Part shown: positions 2,334-41,784 of the stretch, piece by piece
How positions within the stretch are numbered: the first letter of the stretch is position 1
How the letters are laid out: the number at the start of each line of letters is the position of its first letter
From: Eukaryota sp. GEM-RC1
Taxonomy: Eukaryota
Length of the DNA: 64,000 bases
Direction of reading: 5' to 3'
NCBI GenBank assembly: GCA_040285855.1
Contig: JAUFOQ010000002.1
Span: 1,612,001-1,676,000 of the forward strand
Notes under the pieces: generated by a model
The model's input: the letters and a program-made list of their open reading frames with translations, nothing else
Told to the model about the DNA's origin: nothing
Database searches by the model: none
Program-made: the position numbers and the translations under genes

Positions 2334-3381
2334 CCCGGTACTAAAAGTTAACTTTGGTGCACCAATTGGTGCACATACTTTGGTTTAACGTTGGTGTGAC
2401 TAATGAAATCAGAGATTAGTTTTCACCCGACTAATGACAGTTTAGTTTAGTTTTCACCCGACTAAGGAAATTAGAATTTAGTTTTCACCCGACTAAAGAC
2501 ATTTAGTGGGGGTTAACTCAAATTAAACTAATTTGTTTTTACATTGTAATGATGAGTCACTAATCTTATAATTTTGAGCTTCTAAATCAGATGTCTTACA
2601 TCTTCTTAACCTCATAACAACTAGTTCAATGAATTCACCATCTTCTATAAAGCCTCGTTTTATTGAGGTTGAGTCTGACACTGAGCCCGATAGCTCTTCT
2701 CTCAAAAAAGCCCCTCAAATTGAATCCAACCTACCTCTGTACCATGTTCAAGTGTTTTTGCTAGTACTGGTAACTTAGTATCGTGTAAGAGAAGTTGTCT
2801 TTCCAACACAAATGTTAGAAGTCAATTGTAGACTTGTGAATATGGACAATATGGAATTCCATTTCCACATTTTCCGTCTAGGTTTCTATTTCTGTTTCCA
2901 TTTCCACTTTTTAATAAAAAAAATTCGTTCCATATTATATATAGTGTGGAAATGGAAGTGGAATTCCAGATTTCGAATTCCACATTCGCAAGTCTACTAG
3001 TAGTCAATTGTTTTTGAAATTGTTTCTGGACGATGGGTATTGAGACGAGGAGATGATCGATATTGTACAATGTTGTTGAAGATGATTGATTATTGGTTTT
3101 AGTGTGATCTTATTAGTTCTTTGAATAACAGATGATTAAGTTTTTGTTTGAAGAAAATTGTAATTACAAATTATACAATTTTAGTTTAACGTACGTTAAT
3201 TCACACTAACTTTTGGTTTAGTGCACCAACATTCAATTTAGTTTAGTTTTCACCCGACTAAAGGAATCTGAATTTGGTTTTCACCCGACTAATTGCTTGT
3301 TAGTTTGGTGTTAGTGCAACTAATGAATTTACCGTTTCACTTTGGTGCGTCATTAGTCCAGTTTAGTTTGACTTTAGTGGG
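2334..3381. mobile_element. Putative piggyBac-like non-autonomous element or MITE cluster with subterminal TTAGTTTTCACCCGACTAA repeats
   Basis: TTAA|CCC at 2330-2336 and GGG|TTAA at 3379-3385 (also 2508-2516). Five copies of a 19-bp hairpin-like motif at ~2416, 2447, 2478, 3243 and 3273. Confidence 0.5.
2828..2997. mobile_element. 170-bp MITE with TIRs
   Basis: TIR GTAGACTTGTGAATATGGA versus reverse complement GTAGACTTGCGAATGTGGA; flanked by a 12-bp direct repeat TAGAAGTCAATT / TAGTAGTCAATT. Confidence 0.75.
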
Positions 3382-3416
3382 TTAAATTTTGCCCACCCCT
3401 ACATTTTGTACTTTCA

Positions 3417-3650
3417 ATGTCTCGATTTGTTTTTCTTGTTCTCTTTGCGTGTCTTTTATCTTCAGCGTCTGCCATCTACTGTTTCGATTGTGATAATTAT
3501 CGCAGGACTAACTGCGGATCCAATGCTCAATGTACTAAGTTTTGCGATCCCCTAAAGTCCAAGTTCATTCCCTCCTCATTCCGCTGTATGTACTGGCCTA
3601 CTACTAGAGGCGAGCTTGGTGGTTGCATGGCGTGTGGTACTCTTCGATAA
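3417..3650 (+). CDS. Small secreted cysteine-rich peptide, paralog 1 (77 aa)
   Basis: Signal peptide MSRFVFLVLFACLLSSASA followed by an 8-Cys mature domain; three paralogs in the window. Confidence 0.85.
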   Translation: MSRFVFLVLFACLLSSASAIYCFDCDNYRRTNCGSNAQCTKFCDPLKSKFIPSSFRCMYWPTTRGELGGCMACGTLR

Positions 3651-4087
3651 ATGTATATTTGTGTTCGTAATCACTGTTATGTTCATTGTGGATGTTGATA
3701 CAATACAGAAGTATTGAGCTCGGATTTCCCTGCAGTTCGTCAGGACTGCTCTATTAATGCCTCGTTTCAATTCATCCGGTTATATAGATATGCTCATCAA
3801 ATAGACTTCGTTGAAGAGCTTCATCTGCACGCAGCTGCATGATTGTACAGTACCTACAATTGTTTAGTTCGTCTTCTTACACCAACTACATAGTAGTAGT
3901 TTTTCTCACTGTTTCTACCAAAATTGTGTCGGTCAAGAATGACCTTCATTTGAGTTTTACTCGGTTGATGTTCCCAAAAGGCATATTTCCATACGTTTCG
4001 TGCGCCATTCGCCTTAGATCCATTGCACACGAAAATTTGGTTAAGGAACAACTGCATCATATACATGTTCAACATTTTGTTCAATCA

Positions 4088-4310
4088 ATGTCTCGATTTG
4101 TTTTTTCTTGTTCTCTTTGCGTGTCTTTTAGCCTCAGCTTCTGCCCATTATTGTTTCGATTGTGATAATTATCGCATGAGCGACTGTCGATACACCGTCG
4201 GATGCACAAAATGGTGTGATTCTCACAAGTCCAAGTTCTTGCCTTTCTCGTTCCGTTGTGTTTACTGGCCTACTACTGGTGGTTGCCTTGCGTGTGGTAC
4301 TCTCCAATAA
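4088..4310 (+). CDS. Small secreted cysteine-rich peptide, paralog 2 (one extra T in a T-run near 4101-4106)
   Basis: Same ATGTCTCGATTTG start and Cys pattern as paralog 1; removing one T restores the frame. Confidence 0.8.
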
Positions 4311-6355
4311 ATGTAACTGATATTTTCAATACTGTGCATAGAAGTATCGAGCTTCACTAAACACGAATCTTCATGCAGAAGAATCGCTACAGTAGTTTGA
4401 ATCCGTAGATGACCTCAATAGACAGGCCTCGATTATCAGCTTTATTTACACGTATGTTATTGCTACAATGATAGACTTATATGATTGACTTTCATTTCTG
4501 AGTCCTCAATCCTGTTTTCTCTCACCCAAACGTCTCTAGCACCACTAGAAGTGATTGTGTCCAACTTTAATCTCCATCTACTATCCTGTCAGATCTTAAT
4601 ACAGAAATATCACATACACCCCATCAATATCTGTCAATTCTCTCGGTTCTCCATTTTGTTTTCGTATTCTTGTGTCTATTATTAAGTATGTCGATACGCT
4701 TAGTTAGTTGCTGTCCTCTTTGGATGGCTGAATTTCTTATTACATTTGGCTATATCAATTGATGAGTGTAAATTCTGCGGACGACATACACCTTTCAATG
4801 TCGGGATCTGGAAATCCTGTTCCATGTCATTTAACTCAGAACCAGCACTCCAATCTATAAGTTGGGATTGGAAAAGAAGTAAAAAATAGGATAATATGGC
4901 TTTCCTTTTATTTGATATTCGAATAATAACCATGCCCAAAAAATCTGAATTTGTATAAGCAAATACAAAACACTTAGACTAAATCGAAGATTATGTTTTG
5001 AGACACTAGCTTTCACAATCAAAAGAGTAAAGTTCCTCAACTAAACGAGAGAAATAGAAAGGGATATTTCGGAAAATGGAAAGCACAACACGGTTTTTCC
5101 ATTGAGACAGTATAAACTTTAAACTTATGAGCACGTTTCTTTCCTTTACATACCACTTCAAAAACCTTGAAAAATAGTTCCTGTGTAGGACTAATCGATC
5201 CAAAAAGAGAGAAACAGAAAAAGGATGAACCATAAATTAGAAATATATTTAAGGAATATCTTCATACATAATCATATCCACATTATAAGAATCAAATATA
5301 ATCACACATCCACACAACCTTTTTCCACACCTAATGACTTCTAAAGAAGACTTAATCGATAATGAGTTGAGACATCTTAAAATATGACATGTGCTTTAAA
5401 CATGGAATAACAAGAATCACAAACATTATCATGAATAACTAAACGGAAATTGAATCAAATAATTATTATTGAGGTAACTTAAATTTTTACAACAATATTT
5501 CTTATACTATACTCCAATTTACTTAATACTAGCCTATACAAAACCATTACTAGCCCACTCCGTCTGACTAGTATTAGAATACGTGCGAGAATACCGTATT
5601 CTTACATAAACACGTGTTGCATTTCTTTTATCATATGGTTCATTACATTGAAACATTACACTGATGCTTTAAATGAGTTTTATGATTACAAGAACAAACG
5701 TAGCTTTTTCAAAAAACAATCATCATGGTAAGAAATGGAGAAATGTTCACCCAAATCTTTGTGGGAAAAAAATGGCTCACGAGATGGTGTTCTTCGTTCA
5801 GTACCAATCAAAATTGTAAGTCAATCAGCTGTCGAGAGAAATTCGATTGTGCACTCATCATTAAAACCAAGAAACGCAATAGGATGAAAGCTTCACTCCT
5901 GCATGATTTGGTATTTCTTTACGCCAATCAAAGACGATTATGAAAATCGCTGAAAAAGATCTTGTGATACCCTGGGTAATTGATCAGTTTATTGCTGAAC
6001 CTCAAGATTAGGACCATGACATTCTTAAAGATGAACCAGAAGACCATATTGTTGTGAATCCCTACCTTAATGAAGAGTTGTAGTTTTTGTTTCATCAATA
6101 GTATATTATAATATAATATAGGTGCTGGTCAACAGAAAAGAAAAGAGTTAAAAAGAAGAATTTATGCGACTAAATCTTAACCTCATTATGAGACTCACTC
6201 CTTTGTTTCCTTAGGCTACCTACAGGGTGTAAGAGACAAGTAGTGGCATCTGAAACGAATACGTTGGAATACAGTAAAATGAAGCCGCACGTATTCCACA
6301 CGTGTGCGTATGGAGTCCGTTACTGAACGTACCGCATTTCGAACTTTTCCCTTCA

Positions 6356-6589
6356 ATGTCTCGATTTGTTTTTATTGTTCTCTTTGCGTGTCTGTTAGCC
6401 TCGGCTTCTGCTCGTTATTGTTTCGATTGTTCTAGGGATCCTAATTTCAACTGTCGGTTCAGCGCCCAGTGTACTAAATTCTGTGAATCCAAACAGTCCC
6501 AGTTTGTTCCCAACTCGTCTCGCTGTGTTTATTGGCCTACTAGTAGCATCGAGCCTGGTGGTTGTATGACTTGCGGTACTCTCCGATAA
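6356..6589 (+). CDS. Small secreted cysteine-rich peptide, paralog 3 (77 aa)
   Basis: MSRFVFIVLFACLLASASA plus the same 8-Cys pattern ending CMTCGTLR. Confidence 0.85.
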   Translation: MSRFVFIVLFACLLASASARYCFDCSRDPNFNCRFSAQCTKFCESKQSQFVPNSSRCVYWPTSSIEPGGCMTCGTLR

Positions 6590-11348: not shown

Positions 11349-12776
11349 TTTTGATACACTGACGCTTCTTAAGTGCATCAGAGTAGTTCTCTGATTAACA
11401 CCATCTCTAGTATTTGCCAATTGTAGTATTTACCGGTATACTACGTGTAGTGATTTGCTCCGCTTTGACAATCACTTTGACAATTTCCAAAAAAAACAGT
11501 TGAAAAGACTAAAAGTATTCTTGCATTTGTAGAAGGAGGAGCAGCTTTGATAGATTTGTTCTGTGACCTTGGAGTCAAGTAATATATCCAACAATCTTTT
11601 CAAGTGTCAACAACTTCAGTTCACTGTAGATATCTATCAAAGATTCCGTTTGACCTGCGAACAAGAGTTGTAGTGTACAATGCCTCCAATTGACTTCTCT
11701 CTCAATGTCTTCTTCAAATCAACCTTTGAATGAGTATACAGTTTCAAACACTTTTGATTTAGAGGACATGCTTAGTGATGTGTCAAGTACATTGGATGAG
11801 TCTGCATTTGTCTACTTGAAAATCAAAAGCTATGATTGCCACACAGTGGACTGTTCAACCAACAGAGCTGTTCGTCCACAAAGTACCACATTTCTCAGAA
11901 AGCAGAACAGTGGCTTGTTTAATGCTGTTCAAAAAGGGAAACTTTGGTATTTTCAAGATCATCTTTATGATGTGTTTCATACGTTGCCTAAGTCTCAAAA
12001 ACAACGTTGTACTGATAAGATTCTTCTCAATTTGAATGGATACAGTCAATTGTCAGTACAAAAGTTGAAATATCTGATTGCATCTTCTATTCTAGAATCA
12101 TGACTCGTAGTCTTTTTTTTCCTAGTTAGTTCATCTTAATACAGTACGAATTATCCTCATTTGTCAATGTCAATCAATTGCATTTTATCTAGACAAACAC
12201 ATCTGTTCTTCAACTTTCAAAAATGATAATAATCTACAATCGATAAAACGGAGATACAATATCGTGCTTGAAACGTAGACACTCTTAAATACCTTTAACT
12301 GAGCAGCTTTTTTTAAATGACCTTTGTTAATTCGGTTCTCACTTCCTGCAACGTACATTATAGTATAAGTCCTTTTCAACTACAGTATAATCTCTCCGAT
12401 TGAACACTCTCTCTAATTGAAAAAAAAATCCCATGCATCCTAGTTATTTAATACCAAATTGAATTTGAAACAAATGTTTACAGAAATCTCACCATTTTCT
12501 AGTAGATGTTCAATCCTCCTCAATAATAGGATTGTTTGGCTATGAACTCAATGATGTTGAAGTATACCTCAACATGGAGTGTATGATTTCTCTTTCTTTT
12601 CAGTCACCACAATTTGTTTAGTCAAGTTTAAGATAAGTGCAAAAACTAGAACTCAATGTCATTAAAGCAACATTCATTGCCATTAAAACTCACATCAGCT
12701 TTTTCGTCATAAAAATTACTGAGAACAAAAAAATACCTTTGTGATTGTATTCATTTGTCATAATTGGAAAAAGTTT

Positions 12777-12848
12777 CTCGGTCACGGGGAATCGAACCCC
12801 GGCCTCCCGCGTGACAGGCGGGGATACTCGCCACTATACTATGACCGA
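12777..12848 (-). tRNA. tRNA-Asp(GTC)
   Basis: Reverse complement TCGGTCATAGTATAGTGGCGAGTATCCCCGCCTGTCACGCGGGAGGCCGGGGTTCGATTCCCCGTGACCGAG is a canonical 72-nt cloverleaf. Confidence 0.95.
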
Positions 12849-13763
12849 TTCATGGCGGTAATACCGGTAGGTACATAATAGGTACTACATGTATATCGGC
12901 AGAGATAACGTTTACCGTAACGAAGTAGGGTAAGTCACCTTTTGTTTATAGACAATTCACATGATGTACTGTTCAAATCTGACATATGATATTCTTTGTG
13001 CTAAAATCTACTTTACCTGCGGAAAAGAATGTTGTGAATACCTGCTTGATCTTGAAGATAATAGAACGTTCAGTCACAACTGTTTGTAGTGTTTATCCAA
13101 ACATTATTGATTTGTCTTAGGTTGGGACCAATCAATAGGAATTTGTTAAGATTCTTCTAGTGAACCAAATTCATGAATCGTGTTTGCTATCTTTAAAGGT
13201 ATGGTCACTTCTGTATCTAGCGCTTTATTATCTCTTGGCAGACATTATGAGGATAAGGTAGGTGAAAATTTCCAGATAGGCAATCTGGACTTTGAAGATA
13301 TTGATTATTAGATGTAAGTACACTGTAGTGTTGTTGTCTATTACTTTTAGAATAAATAATTCGTTTCGAAAAAAAAAGTATTTAAGCGTACCTTTGTAGA
13401 CATGCATTTTCTGAATATTAACGTGTTTTATTTCAACGCGTAATTTTCTTAATAGTGTTTATTTAGTTGTTGTTTTCTTGTTGTGTGGTTTCTCCGTACG
13501 TAAATCCGTTTTTTCAACGGCAGAACTTATCATGACTCGGGAAAAAATTACGGTACTGGAACAATGGTTCACAAAAATTATCCGACAAATCCAACTAAGT
13601 CGAAACAGGAAACATTAGTGCTACTGAGTTATTAGTACTGCACTATTTCATTAATAATGTTGTACTATTAAATGTTGTTGTTAGATATGTTGTCAGTTTC
13701 AGTATGTCAAGATGTCACTGTAGACAACATCTATAAATAGTCTGAATTTATATTTGAGTTCAA

Positions 13764-16700
13764 TTGCTTGGAGAGATGTCTATGGATACCTGTGTCCTGA
13801 GATCTCTCTCCTTCTTCTTTTCATCAACCAAACACGATCACGTGTTTAAGGATATGCCAAGAGAACATATTTTCTCGAGGCGTTCCTTTGTTCTACCTTT
13901 GTTGCATGGTTTGTTTACTCACTTTTCGTCACTCAAACACGATCACGTGTTTAAGGATGTGCCAAGAGAACATATTTTCTCGAGGCGTTCCTTTGTTTAT
14001 ACTCTTCTTTCTAACTTTTCGTCACTCAAACACGATCACGTGTTTAAGGATGTGCCAAGAGAACATATTTTCTCGAGGCGTTCCTTTTTCTCTCATGGAT
14101 TCTCGAATTATTCTATGTTGTTTCTTCTTTTGTTGTTGTTAGAGAAATTCTTGAGTTCGTCTCAGTCGTTGTTTTGTTTTTACGATCATAAAGTCAGCAC
14201 TTGTATGGTTTTTCTACAATCAAGTCTCCAGTCATCACAGTTTCTCCGTGATTTGACTATGGACGGAGACATAGAGTCAAACCCTGGTCCTTTTGTCACT
14301 GAGGAAGGAATCACCACATTAAAGTGCTCCGTATGGCTCGATGATTCAGTTGTTGACTTTTATGGTGAGTACATCACCGAGAATAGTGAGTTATGCCAGT
14401 TTTTCCGTATCGGGAATCTTCATGCTGCAGTGAGTTTTGGCGATTTTGACACATTAGCTCTTGAATTTCTAAATGTTCAGAATTCAATGCGAGAGACTGG
14501 GAAAAGGTTTTTATTTATTCCAATAAACGATGGTGTCTTTCGTGGTACAGCAACTCATTGGACTCTACTTGTTTGTGACATTGATAGTACATCATTTTTT
14601 CACTTGATTCAATGTACACTGACAGTTCAACTCAACTTTCATTTGACGTTTCAACTCAAAATGATCAAGTTGTAAGTACTTTACAGGTATATTTGCGTGA
14701 TTTTGGTAATTTTTCAAATTTAGGAAAGCTCCCAGTTATTAAACATCAAACTCCCAGCGACTGTGGACCATATATCTTAATGTATATGCAAAGATTTGTT
14801 CATTTGGCATCATCATCTGACAATTTCCAGGAAATTATGTCTCAAGTCCAAGGTTATGTCGATTATGATGCTTTTGACATGAGAAAACAAGTTTTAAATC
14901 TGATAGCAACCACGCATCCTATTCCTTTTGCTATACTTGCTGTAAGTATTGTACATGAGTGCTTTTCAAACAACATTCAAGCACATGTTCAAGAACACAG
15001 TGCCATAGTTTATTCTACACATTTGCAACAACAAATGAATAGATCTGCTGGTACTTCTGAAATAGCCGAACATCCAACAGTAATTTTATCTCCTGATGAA
15101 ACTCGACAAGTGCCATTGACAATACCCAATCAACTTATAGACTCAAATCGTACAAGGAAAACTCGTAAATCTAGAAAATATCCTCCAAAAAAGAAGAAAT
15201 TTTCTCAAAAATATCACCTTATTCAACATCAACATCGTGGAACTCTAACACAATCTCGTCCTAGACCACTTTTACTAAGATCTGATCAAATTGACACACT
15301 GAAACCAAACGTACTGCTTCATGATTCTGCCATTGACTTTTTTTGGTCAGTACATTGCTCAAAAGAGTAATCTATGTGAATTCTTTGAAGTAGCGAACAT
15401 TCAAGATGCAATCAATCTTTCACAATATAACATAATGTTTGAACAATTTAGAGAAGTTCAATTATCAATGGAAAAATCCAGCAAAAGACACACTAAAAAG
15501 TGTAAGAAACGTTTCTTGTTTATTTCAATACATGACGGTCTCTTTGGTACAACAGCCACTCACTGGTCACTGTTAATCTGTGATATTGAAAACAAACAAT
15601 ACTTCTCTATTGACTCAATGTGTACAGAAGATCAACATTCTCAGTTTTCTAGCACTTTATCACGTATTGACAAAGTCATTTCACAATTACAGCAATTCCT
15701 GTTTATGGCAAATTTCAGCTATATAGCTAGAGTACCAGTTCAACAAGTCCAAACTCTTAATGACTGTGGTCCATTTATTCTAATGTATATGAATAAATTT
15801 GTCGAGAGTGAATCCACATCAACAAATCTTTTCGAAATTCTGTCTAAAGTCTCTAACTGTGTTGTTTATAATGCATTAGAAATGAGAAAACAAATACTGT
15901 CTCAAATCGTTACTACTCACCCTGATGAAGATCACCCTGATGAATACCGACAATATGTATGTACTCATGCTCAATGTATTTTAAATGAGTTTTATTCTGA
16001 TGAGATTGTATCACCTGTTAATCAACCTGTACAGTGTCAATCTGAAAGCTTAACTCCTGAAACAATGGTAGATGATAGTAGTTACAAAGAAACGGTGTCA
16101 AAGCTCACTTATCAAAACTTTCTCAAAAGTTTACCTGGAAATTTGTCTAATCGGAAGAAGAAACGTCTTTTGAAGTTAAAAATGATTGAACAAGCACTGG
16201 AAGAAGCTGAAGAATTGTTTCAAGAAAGTTATCATAACTTTAGTCGTCCAGAGTTGACAGATCTTCCAGAAATAAATTTACCAACTCCAAAAATAAATGT
16301 TGCTGCTTGTGAGAAACCTGATACAACAGAAGCAACAGAAGCAACAGAAACAGTTGAATCATCTGACACCACTGAAACAACAACAGCAACAGGAAATAGA
16401 AAAACAACAGTTGCCAAAAGGAAAACCACCAAACCAAAAGCAAGTGGAGTATCAAATGCGACAAAGAGTTTGAAACCTCCTAAAAAACAAATGATTGAGT
16501 TTCTCAAACATCCTCAATTACCAAATAACTCTAATCATTGTTCTATATTGTCTTTTGATATTGAAACTAGAGAAGTTGATCAAATCCCTGCAGAGACAGT
16601 TACACAGGAGTTGGACGATCAAAGAAAGAACGAGAATGAATCTCTCAAAATGAAAAGTGATGCAGAAAAAGAAGTGTGGATTCAAAACCAACAAGTTTTT

Positions 16701-19208
16701 ATGATTTCTGGGGTGTTTGGTCATTTTATAAAAGATCAATTTTACCTTCAAGACAATTTTGTTGCAACTTTAGAGTTGACTCATGAATCTGATGTTGAAC
16801 TGCCACCTGATTGTAGAAACCTTCGATTTTTTGAAAACGAAAAACAGTTACTAGAGTTTTTTGTCAACTATTTGAATGATAAAAATCCCTCAGTTTTAAC
16901 TGGATTTAACATAACTGACTTCGATAATGTTGTTTTAGGCAACAGGATTGTTACACTTGGAGTCGACTTTCCAGAACCAATGCTAGATGAAATAACAAAA
17001 TCTCATTTATCATCTCTATGGCAAAATGTTTGTTCTGAATGGGCTGGTAGAATTGTCTGTGATTCATACGTTTATGCTAAGCAATTTATTGTTTCAAAAT
17101 GTTCAAAGTCTTTAAGATCATTAAGTTGGTTTTTATTAAACGAATCTAAAGGACGTCTTCATGACGAATTTCACCACTTATTGCCTATTGATTGTGTTGT
17201 TGAAAGACCTCAAGAAGTTCTAAACTATTGCTTCAAAGATAGTGTAATAGCATTGAAGTTGTTTTTATTGTTTCAATCAAATAAAATCGTTCGTCCAACT
17301 TTTGTAACACATAAAACTACTCTAAAGTCTATTGTCAAACATTTTGGATTAACGACCTCCTACATTTAATGAAAACTTGAAAAACTTTGTTTTAGAAGAA
17401 TACAAACAAGTAATGCTCAACAATGGAGGAATTCCACTCTTTCCAGCTGCTCATTCCTCACGACTTATGGCAATGGTGGGTGAAACTATTAAATCGAATT
17501 TGGACACAAACATTAAAATGCGATATGCTCAATACATTGACAAATTTATTAATGTTTATTTTCAAAAGACTGATCAAGAAGAAACAATGTCAATAAAAGA
17601 ACAGTCTGTTTTTCGTTGGAGACTTAGACAAGTTAAAAATGTCTTTCTTGAAGGTAACAGAAATGACATTCCAAAAACCACTGTAGAAATTAAACAATTT
17701 ATTCAAAGATGTAATGCAGAAATTCTTCAAGACGACAGTAATAGAAGTTTGAACATTGCCAAAATTAAACTTCTGTGGGCAACTAACGACTATGTTGAAG
17801 GATTGTTTAGATATAGATATTTTATTGATGTTCTCTTCCCACCATCAATTGATATTCAAAATGCTAATGGTGTTTATAAAGAGAAAGTCGTTAAATCTCT
17901 ACTAAAATCAGTTCGTGAACATCCTCAATCCTTTATTAAATCTGCGATTCAAATAAATAACTATCTTGAAAGTGAAGGAGCAAGTGCTTACAATGTAATT
18001 CCTATTGTTCGACACGTCACACCAGGTTTCTTTGAAATAGACACACAAGGTCTTTGGGGAATATTACGTTCCACTTTGTCAACACAACAAGTGAATGTCA
18101 AGAAAAAAATGTCTGAGTGGAACACAAAAGTTGAAATTGAACACATGTCTCCTGCTGAACAAAATCAATTCTGGTCTTACTTTTTCAACTTTAATCGTCC
18201 ATTTATAAAGAAAGGTTATAAGTTTAACAATACCATTAAAACTGATGGTTTCTCTGCCTGTGTTGAACTTACTAGAGAGGACTGTGTGGGAATGTCCTTT
18301 AAACCAGATAGTGCAAAGTTCTCCAGTAAAGAAGAATATGTTCAAGACTATGATATTGAAGAGTTTTCACTGAAAACAAAAGTGTTTATTGACCCTGGAA
18401 AAACAGATTTACTCTATTTTTGTTCAGAGAAAGTAAATAGGCCATTTCCTGAACAAAAAGCCCGTGAAATGAGAAACAAAGAATACGAGTGGCTAAGATT
18501 GACAGAGACAGAATGGTCCAGATGGTCAAGGGTCCATCAAAAGTTTAGAAGGGGAAAGAAAAAAGAATTCATTCTCCAAGATGGAAAAACAGTTGAAGAA
18601 GAAGAGTCAACATTGTCCATAGAAAATTCGAAATCGACTCTTTATGACACATTCTATGACTATGTGAGTTCCAAACTTACAGTTATTGAATCAACATTTG
18701 ATTACTACTGTTTGATGATATGGCGCATTCAAAAATGCAAAGATACGTCCATATTCAAAAAACAGAAAGTAAGTTGTTGAAAAATATGACTGCAAAAGGA
18801 TGGAATAAAAACGACTGTGTATTGATGTTTGGTGACAATGGTAATAAGAGGCAGAACCTAAAACACCTCCGATCAAGTAGAGGTGTGGGTTGGAGAAAAC
18901 TTCTTTAGGAGAAATGGTTTTAACATAGTTCTTGTAGACGAGAGTTACACATCTTCAAAGTGTCCTACTTGTTGGAGGCCAGTTAAAGTGTTCAAAGAAA
19001 TCAGTAATCCAAAACCATGAAAAGAGAGAAGAAACCTCTGGTAAAGTGTCACACTTTGTTGAGATGCAAGTCCCAAGAATGTAGGGAAGAATGTCATGGT
19101 AGCGCCAAGATTTGGAATCGTAACAAGTTAGCATGTATCAACATCAAGACCATTGTGGAACATCATTTGGAGCGGGGTCTAGGAGTTAGACCCAGTTATT
19201 TGTCATAG
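13764..19208 (+). CDS. Probable polyprotein (frameshifted here): 2A motif - Ulp1/C48 protease x2 - PolB-type DEDD 3'-5' exonuclease - Fanzor1
   Basis: Six abutting or overlapping same-strand ORFs; most breaks are 1-nt slips in homopolymers. Motifs: GDIESNPGP; HWTLLVCD/QTPSDCGP; HWSLLICD/QTLNDCGP; FDIET/GFNITDFD/YCFKD; IDPG/FGD/VDESYTS/CPTC/WNRN. The true start is uncertain. Confidence 0.75.
13817..14087 (+). repeat. Three 73-nt structured direct repeats (13817-13889, 13922-13994, 14015-14087) separated by unique 32- and 20-nt spacers
   Basis: Units 2 and 3 are identical and unit 1 differs at about 4 positions. Each holds the hairpin AAACACG-ATCA-CGTGTTT and the stem AAGGA(T)GTGCC-AA-GAGAA-loop-TTCTC-GA-GGCGT-TCCTT. 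Confidence 0.9.
14238..14291 (+). other. 2A/StopGo ribosomal skipping motif QFLRDLTMDGDIESNPG|P
   Basis: Exact match to the consensus GD(V/I)ExNPGP with an upstream hydrophobic helical segment, immediately before the first protease domain. Confidence 0.85.
17296..19208 (+). CDS. Fanzor1 (eukaryotic TnpB-like RNA-guided RuvC nuclease) region; frameshifted, RuvC-III Asp reads as Asn
   Basis: N-terminal KTTLKSIVK; IKTDGFSACV; RuvC-I VFIDPGKTDLL (D 18391); rearranged RuvC-II (VLMFGD, then VDESYTSSKCPTC with E at 18940); zinc-finger CxxC...LLRCKSQEC; WNRNKLACINI (N 19122); C-terminal RPSYL. Confidence 0.88.
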
Positions 19209-19328
19209 TCATAGTCATAGCCTTTATTTACTACAGTGAATCTATAGCATTATTGAATCTTCAGATTCATGTGCTAAATTCTACATTTCTCCCCTTTAGT
19301 ACCCCTTTACAACATTATCTGATCTTCC

Positions 19329-19745
19329 ATGGCTCCACATTCCAAAACCAAACCTAAAAAATCCTCTCGCAAATATGGTGAAGTCAAATTTGATGAGGAC
19401 TCTCGCCGATCATATGTTTCTATAAGTTCCAGACAGAAGGCTAAAAATGAAAGAAAGTCAAAAGCCAAGATCATTGCCAGTAGAAAGCTTAGAGAAGAGG
19501 TTTTAGCTGAACGCAAACAACATCGGGACGAACTCAAGGCCCAAGTTGAACACATTGAACATCAACATAATACTCAAGATGATGCAGGTACTAGCGACGT
19601 GGAATCTTCTGACGACCGTTCTCACTCTGTTAGTCTCACTCCTAGAACTGCACCAAAAGTGAACATTCTGAGTTTACCTTCTATATCTGATGCACTGAAC
19701 TTTTCCACGCCAGAAGCTGAAGAAGAAGACCCATCAAGTCCATGA
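19329..19745 (+). CDS. Nop25/Rrp17/NOL12-like nucleolar protein
   Basis: N-terminal VKFDEDSRRSYV...RQKAKNERK resembles the Nop25 motif (VxFDxxxRxxY), followed by a basic coiled coil and an acidic tail. Confidence 0.55.
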   Translation: MAPHSKTKPKKSSRKYGEVKFDEDSRRSYVSISSRQKAKNERKSKAKIIASRKLREEVLAERKQHRDELKAQVEHIEHQHNTQDDAGTSDVESSDDRSHSVSLTPRTAPKVNILSLPSISDALNFSTPEAEEEDPSSP

Positions 19746-19798
19746 AAACCTACATTGTTACATTTTGTTTATTTACATAATGATGTGATCAAATCTTG

Positions 19799-20518
19799 TC
19801 AAGGCATCCGTTGAGTTGTTTTTGATTGTTGTTTTTCTGCTATCCACTTTAACATATTCTCTACCATTCGCGACAGAAAATGTTTCTCTTCTTCATGAAA
19901 ATGTTGACCCTTAAACTTTGGATCAGTAATTAAACCTAATATACTGAATAATCTCAATAAATGATGAACACGTAGTCTTTTTACCACAACATCGAACTCT
20001 TCGCCATTGACAGTAAGGGCATACTCATCAAATCCTTCCTTCTTTGGGTAGAATATTAAGGACAAATGTCTTCTAAGGATGTCTAAGAAGCAGTCCTGTA
20101 GAGTCAAGAGTAGTTTAGACCATGTTTCTTGTGAGATCTTTTCAAATGAGAAGTAAGGTATTAGAGGCTCTGACTCCATGTAAGCCTTGAAGATTTCAAT
20201 GATATTTGGACCACTCACCATTAGAAGGGATCCAGTTGAAGCAGCATAATGATCAGCCTTAACAAGTTCTTTTACGTCAGGGAAGAAATGTAAGGGTGAA
20301 TTGTTACCAAATACTACAGGTCGTTCTTTAGTAGCTTTATTCTTGGAATGAGATGTAGAGTGGGTCCTAGACTTGAATTTTGATTTGGGTGTTGCAAAAG
20401 GAGATGGTGTTGGAGATTGATGATGTTTTGCTCGAAGTCTGCTTCTAGTGGAAACAGATGCAGAAGGTTTACTAGTACGAGAAGTAGATCCAGGAGTGAT
20501 GGGTAGGGTTGGGGACAT
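19799..20518 (-). CDS. MRG-domain-like chromatin protein
   Basis: Low-complexity S/T/K N-terminus, then a helical domain with LVKAD, IIEIFKAY and HHLLRLF resembling MRG15/Eaf3 C-terminal motifs. Confidence 0.5.
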   Translation of the reverse strand: MSPTLPITPGSTSRTSKPSASVSTRSRLRAKHHQSPTPSPFATPKSKFKSRTHSTSHSKNKATKERPVVFGNNSPLHFFPDVKELVKADHYAASTGSLLMVSGPNIIEIFKAYMESEPLIPYFSFEKISQETWSKLLLTLQDCFLDILRRHLSLIFYPKKEGFDEYALTVNGEEFDVVVKRLRVHHLLRLFSILGLITDPKFKGQHFHEEEKHFLSRMVENMLKWIAEKQQSKTTQRMP

Positions 20519-22093
20519 CAACTAAATGCAACTTTTAAAAGTAATGTATCAATACTGTAATTGCACACATTCTTCGTATAGATGTGATTTACCGTCTCTT
20601 GAATTGAGACATGTATACGAGATGATGTGGAAGTCAGGCCCTCTCATAAGATAATTTAAAATAATTTGAACATCCAAAAGTGTCAAAAATAAATGTGAAA
20701 TAAATATAATTAAAACAAAACAAAATCCAAATGAAAACAAAATATTTTATTAGTACATCTAATCTGAGTCACTATCGATGAATACACAATCCATTTGATC
20801 ATCACTTTCTTGTCGAAGTAGGTTAGTTGAATTTTCTGCTTCGTATATGAGCTCTAACTGTGTCGTCATTCCATAGACATCTGTGGATTCTCAACATTAG
20901 TTCAATAATCAGCATCGTGAACGACTATGAGAATCGTTCACTCCCGGTTATAGTCGTTGGATTGGCTTAGAACACAGGTAAAGGCTCGACTGCATCTGTT
21001 AGGTTCGACATAGAAATGGCAAAGTTTGAGGCAAAATGTCTCAACTTTCATTTTTGGCTGAGCTTGATTATGTTCACACATCATGTTTCAAGTCAATCAA
21101 CAACCTTGAGTACTAAATTAACTCATGCACGATACAGATCAATGAAGTTTACTTTGCAGCATTTTATTTATATTTATTTATATTTTGTTTTATTTTCTTT
21201 TATTTGCATGATCGCCAAAAAGTCTCAAAAATAAATATAAATAGAAATAAAAATTATCTATTTGTACTTAACTTATTATGTGTTTTTCTCCGCACATAAA
21301 TCCGTTTTTTTTAAATAGAAATAAATAGAAATAAATAGAATTTATATTTATTTATGAGGAGCCCTGGTGGAAGTATTGGTGACTCTTTTGTTAATTTTGA
21401 TGATATTCTGTATTTGAAATTGTAAATGTAGGGCGTTGTTTCCTTGCAAAAGATGTCTAATCACAGAGAGTTCACTGTTTTTGATAAACAATATTGCTCA
21501 ATATTTGGTATGTCATCTAATTTGCTATTGAAACATCTACATGTATTTCGCAGCCTTACAAAATGTTGAGGTAATAGTGTCATTGAAAGCTCTGTTTGAA
21601 GGCAATGTGTGACATCTCCAATGTTTCATGCCAAAAAGATGGGAGTTTTCCTGCTATCATAATCACCAACTTAGGAAATATAGACAGTTTCAATTGAATA
21701 CGAGAAAACGTTTAGTAGGTTTCCGTTAATACGGCCTAGAAATCTGTTTTTTCTGTACGTACAGAAATCTTTCCAATGTTGGCGTACCGTATTTTAGCTC
21801 TATTAGCTCTCAGTGTTTTTTATGAACAAAAAACTGATGTGAGTTTTAATGGCAATGATTGTTACTTTAGTGATATTGAGTTTTAGTATTTGTGTTTATT
21901 TTAGTGTTTTTGTTCCATATATAAAAGATATTTTACGGTATTTACGGAAATTTCTACGGTGTATTCTATTAATTTAACAAATGACAATTTCCTATCTTGA
22001 TAATTGCTTTTAAATTACTTGACACAAATTAAGCAAATCAAAACATGCACAGACTTTTTTATTGCCGTTAATTTTTTCGATTTCCTTCTTCAA

Positions 22094-25635: not shown

Positions 25636-26350
25636 GGGCGGAGACAAACATCCTATATGAAACTTTTATTTCAGACTACGGTTTTTGGACAAGAACGCTA
25701 AAGTGTACATATTAGTAGTACTAATATGAAAATATGAAAATTTAGTACAGTACATATATTAAACAATATCTTCAAAGTCCAAATTTCGTAGTTGGAAATA
25801 GTCACTAACCGTATCTTCATGATCCAATCCAAGAGAAAGTACAACGCTAAATAAATATGAAAAAAAAACTAAATGTAAGTAAATACTAGTAAAACAACCA
25901 ATCAAAGAACTGGAAAATTCTGACTTTTTTTAGTTACCACCAAACCAGTTGGCCAAATTTGGATCAACATACTGTATCTATACAGCGACTTAAGAATCGA
26001 AAAGGCAAATCTACTCTTCCATTACTACATGTTAGACTTATTACCAAGTACTGACATCAATTTGTCAAACAAATTAAGAAACCGCTTGGTTTATGAAACA
26101 AAATTTCCATATTTAGCTACAGCAACAGGCTGAAAGAGAATAATATTGTATCGTCGTGTGGTTAATGCAATAATTTGATGTACTTAGTTTGACACTGTTA
26201 CGTTTGCAGCGTCTTTCAGCTTATCGTTTGAAGTATTCAAAAGATTGGCAGTATCTGAATTGTTACAAGGGTCAAAGGTCGTAAAATCAACTACAATTTC
26301 CTGGCATGATAACCAAGGGCCAATAAAGGTACATTAATTGTTTTTTCCCT

Positions 26351-29300
26351 TCAAAATGAAATAGTGTAATAGTAAATGATGTATTTGACAAAACTCTGTG
26401 CTGACAAAATGCTCAGCCGTTTTACAGAATTTTTTATAAAAAAGACTGAACACGTAACTGAGAGATTCATTATGAAAAAAAATATATCGATATTAAACCT
26501 ACTAATTCGATAAACAAGAAAAATATTCGCTATCAAAAGTTCCAGAAAAGAAAGATTCCAGAGCAAGCAGATTTGGGTGAAAAGGAGTCCCAGCAGCGGG
26601 TTTAATCAAAGATGAAAGTTTAGATTGAATAAATGTCAAATCTAATTCAAAATTGTCAACTATAGATCTGTAGACAAATGCAACAAAATAGGAATCGTAA
26701 GTAGCTTCATCGATTTCTGGAATATCGACCTCTTCAACATTATTCAGGTCGAAAACAGATTTCAAATCGTCAATAACTTGTGTCTCAATTCGACTTTTGA
26801 CTGAAGCTAAATCAAAGTCTTGCCTGTCAATTAGAACTTTCGAAAACTTTAACAGCGAAATCATCAAACTATAACACGGAGACAAATCAAGTGAGACAAG
26901 TTGTGGAACAGTAGATAGAACCTGTTGTAGTTGATTGAATTCCAAACAGGCAGGGTCATTAGTTTGATTGATGATTATACGAATAATGAAGAGATAAGCG
27001 TCTATGGACAATTCAATAGACATCAAAATATTTGAGTCAACAATGGCTTGAATGACGTCAACAAAATGGATAAACTGATAACGTTGTTGTAACAAATAGA
27101 AAAATGTGGCATACAATGAAGGATTTGAAGAAACAAAGACAGAGAAAAACTTGAAAAACGCTGTTACTATCGACGTATTTGAAATTTCAAACATTTTTTC
27201 AATCAATTGTTGTATCTCCGATGAATCTACACTAAATTCCAAACTCTCAATATAACTTAGAGTGGGACTTTTATCACTGTTTGATTCACTTAGAATTGAG
27301 CCATTCAAAGCCATTTGATCATTAAGAAGAGATGCATTGATTCCATCATTGAATTCAGCATCGACGTGATCAAGTTCAAAACTCTGATTGATCAAAAATA
27401 GTACACGTTTAATTTCAAACAATGGAATATTGGCCAAGAATGAAATGCCAGTAAACAAATCATGAAATTTTTTCTTTTGATTTAAAGAAAGCCGTTCACT
27501 TAAAGCCAAAAGAGTCAGCAAATACCCGTGAATTTGGTTACAAGACTTGTCAACATTACTTAAATCGGTTAGAATTGATTCAAACATTTCTTCAATAAAT
27601 TCTATTCCACAAATAACTGCAAGAGCTTTAGCAGTTGCATTACGAATATAGACATCTCTAACTGATAGTAAATTACACAAACTGGATTTTTAGATCACGT
27701 GGAATCTCACAATCACACGTCATCCTTTGAAGAAGAGACAGGACTGATAGAACTTTGTTGGGAACATCATGATCTTCGTCAAAATTTTGCAAGATATTTA
27801 AAAACGTGGAGAATGATTTAGAAAACCTCTCCGTAAACACCATTAAATCAACAAAATTAGTCTTTGCAGTACCTTTACTTCCAAAAAACCGAGTGCTGAT
27901 GATAGCCATGCACCTAGCTGATGCTGAGCGACAATCCCATGACTCCGATGACGTGTGATTGACAATCAGGGGGCAAATATCATCAAGGTAATCAAGAATG
28001 AGAGAACTAGCTTTCAAATCATTAAGAACAGAAGTAAAGACGTTAAAACAATTAGAAAGCTGGGAGGTAGTAGAATCTGAATTATTTAAAATTGTTAAAA
28101 ATTTCGACATTGCCATAGACGTAGTCGCTTTAGAAGCCACAGAGTTATCAAGAACTTCTCCATGTAGTAAAGCTGAGACAAGCGTGGGAACACCAGCAGA
28201 CCTGCGTCTATGTGAAACGTCATCAGAAACAATCAGGTCAATAACTTGATTGAGTTTCGATTGTCGGTATGATTGACCAGAAAGTGATGACGTCGTTTTC
28301 AGAAGGGTAGCAGAATCGTACAAAACACCAACGTGTCTAACACTTGAGAGTAAGTCAAATGCAATATTTGAAATATTCTGAAAAACTGATTGGTCTAAAG
28401 GAGAATCATGGCGGAAGCAAACGATTTTGTAGAGAATTTGCAGAGCAGTTCGAGAGATATGAGGAGCATCACGAATAAATGAGGAATCACATGACCGGAA
28501 AGAGCTAAAATCACCGAGCTCTAAACCTTGGTGATCAATGTGACTGAGACAGATAGAAACATTCGAAAGCACCTTAAGACATAGATCTATAATATCAGAA
28601 GAGAAAGATTGGACAAAATGATAATCTTTTAATACTACTTGTAGAATTCCAGATAGAAAGGTATTGGTCTGATTTGAAATAGAATCAGAACAATCAGAAG
28701 TTAAATGAGGAGTATTAAAGGATAGAATCGACATTAATTGATAGAAAAAGTCAAATTTTCCTCTAGATCGGGTCCACTCAAGATCATAAATGTTGGATTC
28801 AAAATTGATTGAGAGATTAGAGTTAAATAACTTGTTTAAAAGATGAAAAAGTAACAAGAAACATCCACTCGAATCGGTAAATTTTAATTTTTGTTGAGAA
28901 AATGAATCTCTTAATAACGAAAAAAATTCGTACTGGCTTGATTGTAAAACTTTGAGAAATTTAAAATCTTGTACATCTATCGAAGTAAACAAATGAATAA
29001 AAACATCAATTACTTCAGAACGTGTTTTTCCCAAGAATTCAACAATCCATAATAAATTAAATAATTTAAAATTTTACTGGGTATTATACCAGTATCATTC
29101 AAAACAAAGTGAAACTCAGAAGAAGAATATCCAATCTTAGACGAAGAAATTAAATAATTAAAAAATTGAACTCCAAAGAAACGCCTAGATTGAGGACTTG
29201 AAGGATTTAGTAAAATTAAACAGAGTGAAAAGAATTTGTGATAAAAACAAGCATTTGCACAAACTTTAATTTTTGAACAAAATTCACCTAGAACTGGACG

Positions 29301-31145
29301 TAGAAAGTCAATCAACGTGTAACCGGTAAATTCATCTGATCCTGAATATAGAAAGAGTGAGTGGCACAAGAGATCAAAAACAGCAGATTCCAGAGCAGAA
29401 TTGACCTCTGAATATTTGAAAATATGAACTAAAATTTTGAGACAATCAAACTTTAAAGCCACAAGACAATTCGAGTTTAAACACAATTGAATAATTTCTA
29501 CCAATTGTTTCACATCAAAATTGATTTTGTCAAGGGTTTTACAATGATACTTGAAGAGAATTTCAAAGTAAGAAAACATGAATATGATGGAATTATCGAA
29601 CTTATCAGTCGGCATTGAAAGGAAACAATCACAGAAAGAATTTAAAATTTTAAAATTCTTGGGAAATGCATTAACAAGGGCAGTGAAAACTTGAGAAGCA
29701 AACAACGATAATCTTTCTGGATCGATCTCAGTAGAAGCAGCGTATAGAGCGGTGAAGAAAGAACTAATCCAATCAGTTTTGATTGATTGTGCTAGAATAG
29801 GAAAGTAGAAAATCAACAGGTCATCCAGCACATGACAGACATTAGGGTCGTTTCCTGCAGGAAGAGTTTCAGTTAAAAACGTAGCGTGATTAAAATTTGG
29901 AAAATATTTTAAAAAATCAGAAGGATTAGGCTTGAATATTTTAAAACACTGAGTTAAAGCGAGATATTTGTGATTATTAAGCTGTGAAACTGATAAAATG
30001 AAATTCAAAAATTCATCTAACATTTCTAAATATCCAGAATCTACAAGAAAATTAATCCATAATTTAAAATTACTCTGCCAAAGACTCCCATTAATTGACT
30101 CCCCGCCTGATGTTAAGACAATTTTAAAATGTTTCAGCATTTTACAATGAACTGAAGAAACTTTTTCCAGTTCATGACCACTACTTGCACGATTCAAAAC
30201 TCGATTCAGAGTGTTAGCAATCAAATAAACGGGAACGGAAAACTGGCGATCAAAATGTATGTCTAAAAGAAAAGATATTATCCTCAAAAATGAAGCGCGG
30301 AATACAGAAGAATCAATTATGGAGATAAAGCTTTTGAGAACAACTATTCTAGCTGGTAAACTTAATAATTTAAATATATTGAATAAATTCTCATGAGATT
30401 TAATTGAAATGAATTGAAGTGAAACTGATGACGATTTCGAATCATTGAGGTCAATCAACTGCTCTAACAAATCAAACTGAGTACTTTCCTTTTTGTGTAG
30501 ATCACGAACAATCAAATCAAACTGATTGACGGTCGAGATGGCGGCTGAAACAGAATCTTTAATAGCTATAAAATCAATGTCAGTCAATGTAAGTGCCAGA
30601 CAAGTTCCATGAATACCAGTGAAGCAAGCACATGCTGTACCAAGAAGTAACTGGTGAAGATCAGAAGAAGAATCACCATCAAAGAGAGATTGAAGTTCAG
30701 CTGTAGGACAGAATCGAAGGAAGTAGTGGAACAAACGAGAAAAAGTAGTAGACTCTTGAATAGTCTGTAGACGTGGATGAACTAGTTTAAGATAGTTAAG
30801 GAAACATGCGTATGGAAGGAATGACGAGAAGGGAGGTTGAAGGAGAGAAGACAATATGAGAATTATTGGAGGATTAGGTGTAGAGGAAGAGCAGATGATG
30901 TGATCCAAGTGGTTTTGAAGGGAAGATGAGTCTAGAGTGGGGTTTCTAGCAAAGAACTTTCTGATCATTTTGGCCTGTTTGATATGGGGTTCTGAACTAA
31001 CAAAAAGGAAAAGCTTTGTCAGCACATCGGAAGAGATGGCATCGTGAATGGAACTCGCATGAAGATATTCTAAAAATTCAGTATGAGAGAGTTTGGAGTA
31101 TCGGGTGGCAAAGTTCTCCAAAGAGGAGGTGGGATAATCAAACAT
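26351..31145 (-). CDS. THADA/Trm732-like HEAT/ARM repeat protein (DUF2428), split by frameshifts
   Basis: Consecutive 711-, 453- and 392-aa ORFs with RHVGV, HRRRSAGVP and WDCRSA motifs characteristic of THADA/Trm732; 3' end uncertain. Confidence 0.75.
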
Positions 31146-31186
31146 GGCAAGAAAGAGGGGGGATGAAGCAAAGTCAAATTGTGAAC

Positions 31187-33279: not shown

Positions 33280-34637
33280 ATTTGTAATTTGTTGTATTTG
33301 TGTTTCATAAAATCTCTAATTCTGATGAACTTCTGTCAAACCATTCAACTATTACTGGTCATGAATTTTTAACACAGTCTAATCTCTCGGTATTTGAGTT
33401 TCCTCAATTTTGTCCATTTAGATGATGTGCTGGCGATGATACACCTGCCTGTTCTTAGTTACTTCATGTAGATCGCTTTAGAATACTGTAATTCCTTTTC
33501 TGAAAAAACAGGAAAATTCAATAAGATCTTTGTCATACATAAAGCGACATCATCAATCATACACCAGGTTATTGATCCTATAATAAAATCAAATTGAGGA
33601 TCAAGATATCTTCATTGTATAACTGGATCAATAATGAGGCTTTACATTGTGTACATGGAACTTGGTCTGCACTAATGTATCCACCCATTGAAAATAACAT
33701 TGATAACAATTGTTTTTGATAAATCTGCGACAAACCAACCAAATCAGAACAAACCTGCCAATCCTAGCTACATATAAATCTTGACACTTGTTTGTACGAA
33801 AAAATATCAATATATTGGTTCTAATATTGACCTGTCAAAAGCAACAATCTGTGGTCCTAGAATCCTCTCAAGGATTATATTGAATTAACAATGAAAGACT
33901 GAGAAGTAGAGGTACTAATGCATGTGAATTGAATCATTGAATCGTTCATTTTATTTGGAGTAGAATTACTAGTACTAGGTTGGACTAGGATTGTGCAGGT
34001 TTGGGTTTCAAAAGTTTCAAATACCAAACCTGGTTTAGGTTTGGTTTGGTTTTCCAAAAATGGGTATAAGTTCAGCTAGGTTTTTAAGTTTTAGGTTTAG
34101 GTTCAGCTAGGTTTTGTAAAAAAAAGTTTAGGTTCAAACCTAGTAAACCCGATATGTATTATGAATTAAAAATACACTGTAGTTTAGTGGAACACTGTCA
34201 AAATAAAGTTGTTCTTACGGTAGTACTAGATAAGCTTTATTATTAATGCTCGAGTATCACAAACAACTACTAGTGGTGCTACCTTTCTATTGCAAAAAAT
34301 CGTCTCCAATTCTTAAGACTGACAAGTGCTTGGATACTTTCATCAGACAGAGAAGCTCTATATTCTGGAACTGTGCTCTGTCTTCACTCATCACTTCAAT
34401 TTCAGAAGAGTTCTCGTCAATAGAAGCGTTAAGATCGTTCATATTATTGAAATTAAATGTGTTTCATTTCCTACAGTTCTGAAGCTAAAGAATTAGGTTT
34501 GGTTTTATTGAAAAGGTTTAGGTTCAGCTAGGTTCAGTAAAAAAAGGTTTGGTTTGAAACCTAAACCCGAACCTGCACCAGGGGTGAGAAAAAATATATT
34601 TATATTGTATTTATTGCAATAAATATCTATTTATTTA

Positions 34638-41718: not shown

Positions 41719-41784
41719 TGTTGTCTGTAGACATGGGAGAAGGTAAAGTAAATTTATTTTAAGGGTACTGTACCAGTACTAACA
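41719..41784 (-). repeat. 3' LTR (66 bp)
   Basis: Identical to 48309-48374; TG...CA termini. Confidence 0.95.

Follow-up and report, generated by a model that had tools for sequence, protein, structure and literature searches.

A transposase-less Fanzor1 element in which 2A motif, optional SENP8-like proteases, PolB-type exonuclease and nuclease form one chain

Organisation of the locus

A stretch of 64,000 nt from Eukaryota sp. GEM-RC1 (contig JAUFOQ010000002.1, positions 1,612,001 to 1,676,000), here called the window, was analysed. An earlier note made from its sequence had proposed a Fanzor, i.e. an RNA-guided nuclease, that is fused to proteases and an exonuclease behind an array of repeats and spacers. 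The element in question is located on the plus strand between 13732 and 19276. It consists, in this order, of a TATA-like box, a hairpin at the ATG, three repeats, a 2A motif, two C48 proteases, a linker, an exonuclease, a Fanzor1 and a stretch with two hairpins. A summary is given in Table 1. Characterised Fanzors are stand-alone nucleases of about 400-850 aa whose biological role is open. The locus represents an apparently undescribed variant of a Fanzor1 element which combines 2A, optional SENP8-like proteases, a PolB exonuclease and a Fanzor1 with an Asp-Glu-Asn (D-E-N) triad in one chain.

The fused chain in the window and in its relatives

The window copy itself is damaged. Six frame breaks were found, near 14597, 15340, 17352, 18733, 18903 and 19018. 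Five of them look like single-base insertions or deletions (indels), three in T or A runs and two at short doublets. At the third one (near 17352) ~67 codons of the Fanzor N-terminal lobe are lost: compared to the close paralogue P0019, the piece upstream covers residues 1-121 and the piece downstream starts at residue 189. P0019 itself runs from the exonuclease into the Fanzor across this site without interruption, and each of the six sites is bridged by an open frame in relatives. Owing to the loss of ~67 codons, the window copy lacks a full protein even if the other five breaks are sequencing errors. For the exonuclease and the start of the Fanzor, the fusion had been claimed to be independent of frameshift correction, and these two indeed share one open reading frame (ORF, 15303-17369).

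Intact relatives reach up to 1,905 aa in one chain, in agreement with the single polyprotein that had been postulated. The 100 stored proteins, including 15 ordinary PolB matches and many fragments, comprise 19 with exonuclease and Fanzor N-lobe in one chain, all labelled TZLM3-RCL. Twelve of these 19 also hold RuvC, and four add C48, two domains in P0002 (1,846 aa) and P0014 (1,905 aa) and one in P0007 and P0097. Repeats, 2A and both proteases are found in one frame in P0082, which is 84-95% identical to the window. The six frame breaks would suit an artefact of the assembly, or a chimera that arose by chance from decayed elements. The same order in one frame in several proteins of another labelled species and in close paralogues largely refutes this explanation, which we consider hardly credible. 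Judged by sequence, the fusion of 2A, proteases, exonuclease and Fanzor1 is almost certainly real.

Several close paralogues are broken at the same sites as the window copy, or at one common site where the window is intact. Such common sites fit mutation hotspots as well as systematic errors that long reads leave in repeats inaccessible to polishing. Frame breaks at three host-gene junctions, where introns and indels are inseparable, were not used as a measure of assembly errors.

Table 1. Features of the element in the window (plus strand positions refer to the window)
Feature	Position	Strand	Remarks
TATA-like box	13732..13739	+	37 nt upstream of first ATG; possible Pol II promoter
5' interrupted hairpin	13770..13811	+	overlaps start codon 13776; -22.3 kcal/mol, z -5.3, 0/200 shuffles as good
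Open leader frame	13776..14249	+	158 codons through the repeats into 2A
Repeat core 1	13830..13888	+	fold z -6.7
Spacer alpha	13889..13934	+	46 nt, T-rich; last ~13 nt common to spacer beta
Repeat core 2	13935..13993	+	fold z -5.0
Spacer beta	13994..14027	+	34 nt, T-rich
Repeat core 3	14028..14086	+	fold z -5.6
2A/StopGo motif	14250..14291	+	predicted skip between Gly 14286-14288 and Pro 14289-14291
C48 protease 1, SENP8-like	14292..14915	+	His 14556, Asp 14606, Gln 14747, Cys 14762; frame break near 14597
C48 protease 2, SENP8-like	15270..15920	+	His 15561, Asp 15612, Gln 15750, Cys 15765; frame break near 15340
Low-complexity linker	15921..16547	+	predicted basic stretches resembling nuclear localisation signals (from translation)
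PolB-type DEDDy 3'-5' exonuclease	16548..17280	+	D16557, E16563, D16923, Y17226, D17238; without polymerase domain
Fanzor1	17300..19208	+	RuvC-I D18391, RuvC-II E18940, C4 zinc finger, RuvC-III N19122
Candidate omegaRNA scaffold	19226..19276	+	after stop codon; 6-bp stem, 3-nt linker, interrupted stem; z -2.8, 2/200 shuffles as good

The Fanzor1 domain

The window's own 475-aa Fanzor piece yields an E value of only 0.025. A profile of three intact relatives matches SpuFz1 (2.9e-32), PpFz1 (2.1e-28) and GtFz1 (2.1e-5). It is this profile on which the Fanzor1 assignment is based. Fanzor2 or TnpB chains are not found among the 47 matches in the Protein Data Bank (PDB). The similarity spans the N-terminal lobe of Fanzor1, with two stretches against SpuFz1 and PpFz1 and PF26935 (DUF8286) on relatives. 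Beyond that, an Atlas search gave leads only (Fanzor-like clusters, score 0.76), and an AlphaFold2 model of P0001 based on a 3-sequence alignment was unusable (pLDDT, the predicted confidence, 33).

The Fanzor1 motif is described as D-X(125-275)-[TS][TS]-XX-C4 zinc finger-X(5-50)-RD (PMC3627910). In the window it is found across the frame breaks, comprising D18391, two Ser/Thr and four Cys, with Asn for Asp as the last residue. In Fanzor1 the RuvC-II Glu is relocated to a position six residues ahead of the zinc finger (PMC13565253); in the window it is present as E18940. Counting the relatives that cover each site, many of which are near-copies and not independent, the RuvC-I Asp is conserved in 23/23, the RuvC-II Glu in 19/20 and the RuvC-III Asn in 19/19. 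A dead enzyme or a sequencing error as the origin of this Asn was rejected in view of the 19/19 relatives and the active D-E-N triad of GtFz1. The triad of GtFz1 cuts DNA, the exchange D606N raised the activity of SpuFz1 and the reverse change weakened GtFz1 (PMC11423790). The former picture of an RNA-guided targeting protein with fused effectors stands with regard to the fusion, but the Fanzor is probably a cutting nuclease and not a mere targeting module, given that the triad is kept. Intact members of the family are probably active RNA-guided nucleases.

SpuFz1 (Spu-1 element, PDB 8GKH) and PpFz1 (Parasitella parasitica, PDB 9CF0) resemble the protein described here from the N-lobe to the C-terminus, including the Glu beside the zinc finger. 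Both are stand-alone proteins, of 638 and 849 aa respectively (PMC11423790, Table S3), and have a D-E-D triad. Here, in contrast, the Fanzor is preceded by ~1,000 aa that comprise protease, linker and exonuclease and come after 2A and a folded repeat leader. Guillardia theta GtFz1 (PDB 9CER) has the same active D-E-N triad; it is only distantly related and has no fused enzymes.

The exonuclease and the optional proteases

The PolB-type proofreading exonuclease is confirmed by Pfam (E 3.5e-14) with the residues D, E, D, Y and D present. Its closest solved relative is Pol delta (~1e-7). Among the relatives that cover each site, again with many near-copies, conservation is high throughout, with ExoI D in 28/28 and E in 27/28, ExoII D in 29/29, and ExoIII Y and D in 26/26 each. 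In a tree that carries a long-branch warning, 26 element exonucleases are placed on one side of a 100/99 branch and 15 PolB sequences on the other. The element sequences form deep subfamilies, each containing near-identical copies.

Exonucleases in mobile elements have precedents. Dada DNA transposons (Laccaria, Ectocarpus) contain a DEDDy exonuclease with four intact catalytic residues in their main protein, for which 3'-end processing was proposed (PMC3706591). The exonuclease of Dada, however, is part of a DDE transposase and was aligned with enzymes of the RNase D/WRN type (PMC3706591), whereas here it is PolB-derived and fused to a predicted RNA-guided nuclease. DnaQ-like exonucleases are furthermore described as accessory domains of long terminal repeat (LTR) elements (PMC6338049).

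Two Ulp1 C48 proteases with His, Asp, Gln and Cys had been reported. Domains and residues are verified, the Ulp1 type is not: by best match the proteases are SENP8/NEDP1-like (the deNEDDylase SENP8 9.2e-12, ahead of Ulp1 4e-6). Protease 2 is recognised by Pfam with an E value of 9.8e-9. Protease 1 scores poorly (0.0027) because a frame break splits the domain. Uninterrupted versions are found in P0082, P0051, P0067, P0068 and P0020 for protease 1, and in P0082, P0067 and P0022 for protease 2. Aligning 48 domains, many of them near-copies, and leaving out gaps, His is conserved in 40/41, Asp in 34/38 and Cys in 35/35. The common C48 fold with His-Asp-Cys and Gln is shared with SENP8/NEDP1 (PDB 1XT9) and Ulp1/SENP (PF02902). 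Unlike these, the proteases described here are arranged in tandem, borne by an element and optional, and their substrate is putative. Taking all three activities together, the enzymes of the element look selected for activity.

Subfamilies contain 0, 1 or 2 proteases, and P0060, P0028 and P0035 go from 2A straight to the exonuclease. As seen from the predicted proteins, the core of the family is 2A, exonuclease and Fanzor1, with optional proteases. Self-processing at Gly-Gly sites is unsupported, as a Gly-Gly in front of the exonuclease is confined to a single subfamily.

A translated leader with structured repeats

The three structured repeats upstream of the enzymes are readily confirmed. 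Their cores of 59 nt each are spaced by 105 and 93 nt, both multiples of three. Each forms a 7-bp stem with a 4-nt loop, directly followed by a long interrupted stem. The folds are better than those of shuffled sequences (z -5.0 to -6.7, 0/200 as good on the plus strand), the plus strand being slightly the better one. All repeats are located inside a frame that starts with the ATG at 13776 and leads into 2A (172 codons, no stop). By chance such a stop-free leader results in 2/2000 shuffles, or in 14/2000 if repeat cores 2 and 3 are left out.

The 2A motif was correctly predicted and is in frame in the window copy. Its core is found in 36/100 stored proteins, 0-234 aa from the start in the gene models. 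L1Tc, Ingi, CR1 and Crack, non-LTR retrotransposons with an apurinic endonuclease (APE), carry a 2A 40-80 aa into the main ORF, and ribosome skipping by 2A depends on the upstream context (PMC3708506). Different from these elements, neither APE nor reverse transcriptase (RT) follows the 2A here, and the leader holds structured tandem repeats.

The spacers had been regarded as unique, which does not hold. Spacers alpha and beta differ within the window copy, yet both are present in the same order in three other copies (P0029, P0071 and P0082). Spacer beta even occurs twice in P0071, the second one further upstream, and P0051 has a single unit. As spacers are inherited and repeated and the number of units varies among copies, the array seemingly grows and shrinks by tandem duplication. 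Hence structured repeats at regular spacing are present while unique locus-specific spacers are absent, and the locus is no CRISPR-like array in the sense of unique acquired spacers. CRISPR and TIGR arrays (TIGR-Tas) likewise consist of structured repeat units and intervening sequence beside an RNA-guided nuclease. In contrast to them, the spacers are inherited and duplicated here, the repeats form part of a leader that is translated, and machinery for acquisition was not seen.

Among leaders of at least 60 aa, 16/26 have an internal repeat (one being the window's own model and three marginal) compared to 0/25 downstream control pieces. The sample is drawn from predicted proteins only and hence favours leaders with an open frame. 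The sequences of the units are unrelated between subfamilies. Upon loose back-translation, a stem with an A-N-N-A loop exceeds shuffles (p<0.05) in 5/12 leader units, the window type included, and fails in 7/12, including all 5 units from the other species; the loop rule was chosen post hoc, after the peptides had been inspected. A general long stem passes in 2/12. Based on this loose back-translation only, conservation of the leader structure across subfamilies is a lead, not a result.

The leader might represent an array of omegaRNAs. Each unit would provide a scaffold, i.e. a 7-bp stem-loop 1 (SL1) and an SL2, with a fixed guide of 15-20 nt, and would be excised from the mRNA and loaded into the Fanzor. 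Several targets would thereby be hard-wired, such as rival elements, viruses or host loci, and the exonuclease would chew the cut such that the damage becomes permanent. All three solved Fanzor1 omegaRNAs have a 7-bp SL1 (PMC11423790). In two of them, those of SpuFz1 and PpFz1, a single further stem precedes the guide, the total length being 90 and 75 nt, respectively (PMC11423790, Table S3). The window unit matches this outline in shape and size. However, SL1 directly abuts SL2, whereas in the omegaRNA of SpuFz1 a 6-nt linker between the stems contacts RuvC (PMC10432273). That leader repeats are a family trait, that their sequences differ between subfamilies and that some of the units allow the A-N-N-A loop stem would fit such an array as well. 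It is at odds with spacers that are T-rich, inherited and repeated instead of acquired per copy, and with the majority of units failing the loop test and still more of them failing the general stem test. Moreover, nine spacer-side 15-mers show matches at chance level in the 64-kb window (0-2 each with 2 mismatches), Rfam found only a tRNA and one weak tRNA-like match over 12500-20000 and thus no family for the repeat units, and a canonical candidate exists at the 3' end, too. We therefore regard an omegaRNA array as unlikely. Slightly more doubtful still is the wider scheme, according to which a guide array in the translated leader of its own effector, with the peptide shed by 2A, would direct nuclease, exonuclease and deNEDDylase/deSUMOylase to several programmed targets.

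Candidate guide RNA, search for a mover and a conceivable RNA-based movement

The scaffold of SpuFz1 comprises 75 nt after the stop codon (PMC10432273). Likewise, the two-stem candidate of the window is located within ~75 nt after the stop. The working guide somewhat more probably than not comes from this 3' end of the element, which we favour over the leader array. The Spu-1 element of Spizellomyces punctatus is a further parallel, as it also lacks a transposase (PMC10432273). Its 30-nt inverted repeats, in contrast, were not found here.

No transposase or RT had been noticed in the sequence. Accordingly, Pfam detects neither in the 6 window pieces of the element nor in 9 relatives; one relative model has a helicase. 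This model, P0016 (2,027 aa), joins a DEAH-type helicase to a 5'-truncated exonuclease-Fanzor copy and may reflect an insertion into a host gene or a join made by gene prediction.

The element might alternatively move via RNA, as a passenger of the RT of a long interspersed nuclear element (LINE) acting in trans. The leader units would then be 5' monomers or signals for RT recognition, and the Fanzor might make the insertion cut. At the stop codon there are three copies of a 6-nt unit, resembling the microsatellite tails of some LINEs. P0003, P0015 and P0016 start inside the element with unrelated N-termini, as expected for 5'-truncated copies, though they may as well be artefacts of gene prediction. 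A 2A is known from the N-terminus of non-LTR retrotransposon ORFs (PMC3708506). On the other hand, RT and APE domains are missing in the same window pieces and relatives, a poly(A) tail or duplication was not seen, and known Fanzor1s sit in DNA transposons (PMC13565253, PMC3627910). An RNA-based movement is thus quite improbable.

Distribution of the family

The closest proteins, with 80-96% identity, carry the NCBI label Eukaryota sp. GEM-RC1, more distant ones the labels TZLM3-RCL and TZLM1-RC. Skoliomonas species with matching names are free-living metamonads, sequenced by Nanopore assembly with Illumina correction (10.1101/2023.05.03.539051). We infer that the host of the window belongs to the skoliomonad group of metamonads, which are anaerobic protists.

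Searching 1.84 billion representatives with ORF 15303-17366, i.e. with protease and exonuclease but not with the Fanzor part, gave 34 matches, 19 of which are not plain PolB. Relatives beyond the three labels were not found, 15 of these 19 being so labelled and the labels of the other 4 not having been looked up. Word-based searches with the Fanzor part returned TZLM3-RCL clusters only, which is weak evidence of absence elsewhere. Among 12 loci fetched from metagenomes, viral contigs and prokaryotic genomes none is related: 11 were without tblastn match and one had a match of 37-40 aa to an exonuclease motif.

The family is multi-copy, with near-identical copies on many different contigs, and is found in at least three labelled protist species. 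It is very probably mobile or was so recently. A host gene family domesticated for defence or chromatin regulation and no longer mobile would agree with the missing transposase, the lack of clear ends and the catalytic sites conserved over deep subfamilies and three labelled species. It would hardly lead to near-identical copies on many contigs, many of them broken, or to a copy that has lost ~67 codons as in the window, and we consider it very improbable.

A possible mode of spreading

With a probability of roughly 0.5, the locus is a damaged copy of a multi-copy, transposase-less Fanzor1 element which likely spreads selfishly by an RNA-guided cut, trimming of the ends and copy-in repair. At the sequence level this is based on the single chain in relatives, the conserved catalytic residues, the many copies and subfamilies and the absence of a transposase inside the element. 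Restorative homing by gene conversion at the empty site was proposed as a role of OMEGA systems (PMC13565253).

In this model a single mRNA would start behind the TATA-like box and ribosomes would traverse the folded leader. Skipping at 2A would discard the leader peptide and free the enzyme. As the peptide is discarded, the leader would be at liberty to carry RNA structure and to vary its number of repeats as long as these stay in frame. Once released, the protein (roughly 1,700 aa) would take up an omegaRNA that consists of the ~75 nt after the stop codon, with flanking DNA as the guide, as in SpuFz1. Fanzor1 cuts 14-21 nt into the target (PMC10432273), and the element-free allele would be cut at this distance from the junction. 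A short non-homologous 3' tail would be left. Its removal by the fused 3'-5' exonuclease would allow repair synthesis to prime on the element-bearing template. Since the tail must go before copying, a proofreading-type 3'-5' exonuclease suits this job. Precedents are the exonucleases of T4 in the homing of the td intron and the proofreading of Pol delta in the removal of tails. That the exonuclease trims tails for homing is nevertheless somewhat less likely than not.

The optional proteases might act on host proteins located on chromatin or close to the break; by removing NEDD8 or SUMO from these they would steer repair or relieve silencing. Repair choice and silencing that depend on NEDD8 or SUMO are possible targets. 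Whether the proteases act on host conjugates of such ubiquitin-like proteins is evenly balanced; being optional, they are more likely accessory. The hairpin units of the leader would serve as cis-acting RNA or single-stranded DNA signals, expanding by tandem duplication.

Several points weigh against this model. No mover was found in the window pieces and the 9 relatives, neither a transposase (DDE, HUH, tyrosine or serine recombinase) nor RT or APE. The longest match between the ends is an 11-bp inverted pair (13654-13664 / 19308-19318) which is not accompanied by a duplication and may be chance. The 3' scaffold candidate is weak, with the opposite strand folding equally well (z -3.2), and it has no clear sequence in common with the leader repeats. 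Many relatives are fragmentary models, hence much of the family may be dead. Finally, a 3'-5' exonuclease could instead destroy the 3' ends needed for homologous repair.

That the architecture was not recognised as a described one agrees with our literature search. Judged by the titles and abstracts of the papers listed, it found no natural fusion of a Fanzor to an exonuclease or protease; Repbase, subscription journals and supplementary Fanzor catalogues were outside the search. The available parts of the Fanzor papers PMC10530073, PMC3627910, PMC13565253, PMC10432273, PMC12846837, PMC5718144 and 10.64898/2026.06.03.729735 do not mention such a fusion. An intact exonuclease conserved on a natural Fanzor informs on the fate of DNA ends after the cut, and the homing model becomes testable with one point mutant. 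The fusion is also a natural parallel to engineered exonuclease fusions such as TREX2-SpCas9. Moreover, the N-terminus of Fanzor1 seemingly tolerates large enzyme fusions, and the family is a source of natural D-E-N triads, the more active form in SpuFz1. If the leader units were guide RNAs after all, they would represent a natural multiplexed guide array in a eukaryote, and a protist would have gone part of the way from a homing Fanzor to a CRISPR-like system based on an array.

Genomic surroundings

The TATA-like box was called by its likeness to the TATA consensus. About 120 nt 3' of the Fanzor stop codon the Nop25 gene starts. The flanks of the element are eukaryotic, with a tRNA-Asp, Nop25, an MRG-like ORF, Trm732/THADA, a UCH protease, a BTB protein and an LTR retrotransposon. 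The Trm732/THADA gene (26502-31193, minus strand) is spread over three overlapping frames owing to introns or indels.

Short repeats at 12629-12724, 13214-13316 and 13442-13517 were considered as the left end of the element and rejected, since they recur elsewhere in the window apart from it. One of them belongs to a dispersed repeat of ~100 nt with 3 copies (811-925, 12629-12724 and 21804-21919; 84-91% alike), two of which lie within ~50 nt of the 3' end of a tRNA gene. Another dispersed family has fragments in both orientations at 1553-1808, 13214-13517, 21254-21310 and 25751-26080, one of them adjoining the left side of the Fanzor element. These fragments probably are remains of an expanded host gene family or of a small element.

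The LTR retrotransposon (41719-48374, minus strand) has an intact pol frame of 1,315 aa. Its direct repeats of 66 bp (41719-41784 and 48309-48374) are identical and unusually short for LTRs. The insertion is probably recent. An inverted repeat of 50 nt (34637-34686 / 35081-35130, 96% complementary, 394 nt apart) is likely a miniature inverted-repeat transposable element.

Three paralogous short ORFs on the plus strand (3378-3650, ~4070-4310 and 6278-6589) encode cysteine-rich peptides of ~75 aa with a hydrophobic N-terminus, which are possibly secreted; Pfam gave no match for the two that were searched. A gene pair of ~2 kb is duplicated on the plus strand at 31270-33293 and 39005-40999 (85.5% identical) with a start resembling a signal peptide, and two pieces of it had no Pfam match either. 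Small arrays with a period of 31-32 nt, near three helical turns, are found at 51496-51931, 2376-2496, 3234-3323 and 34031-34142, each consisting of a constant part of ~17-25 nt and a short variable part.

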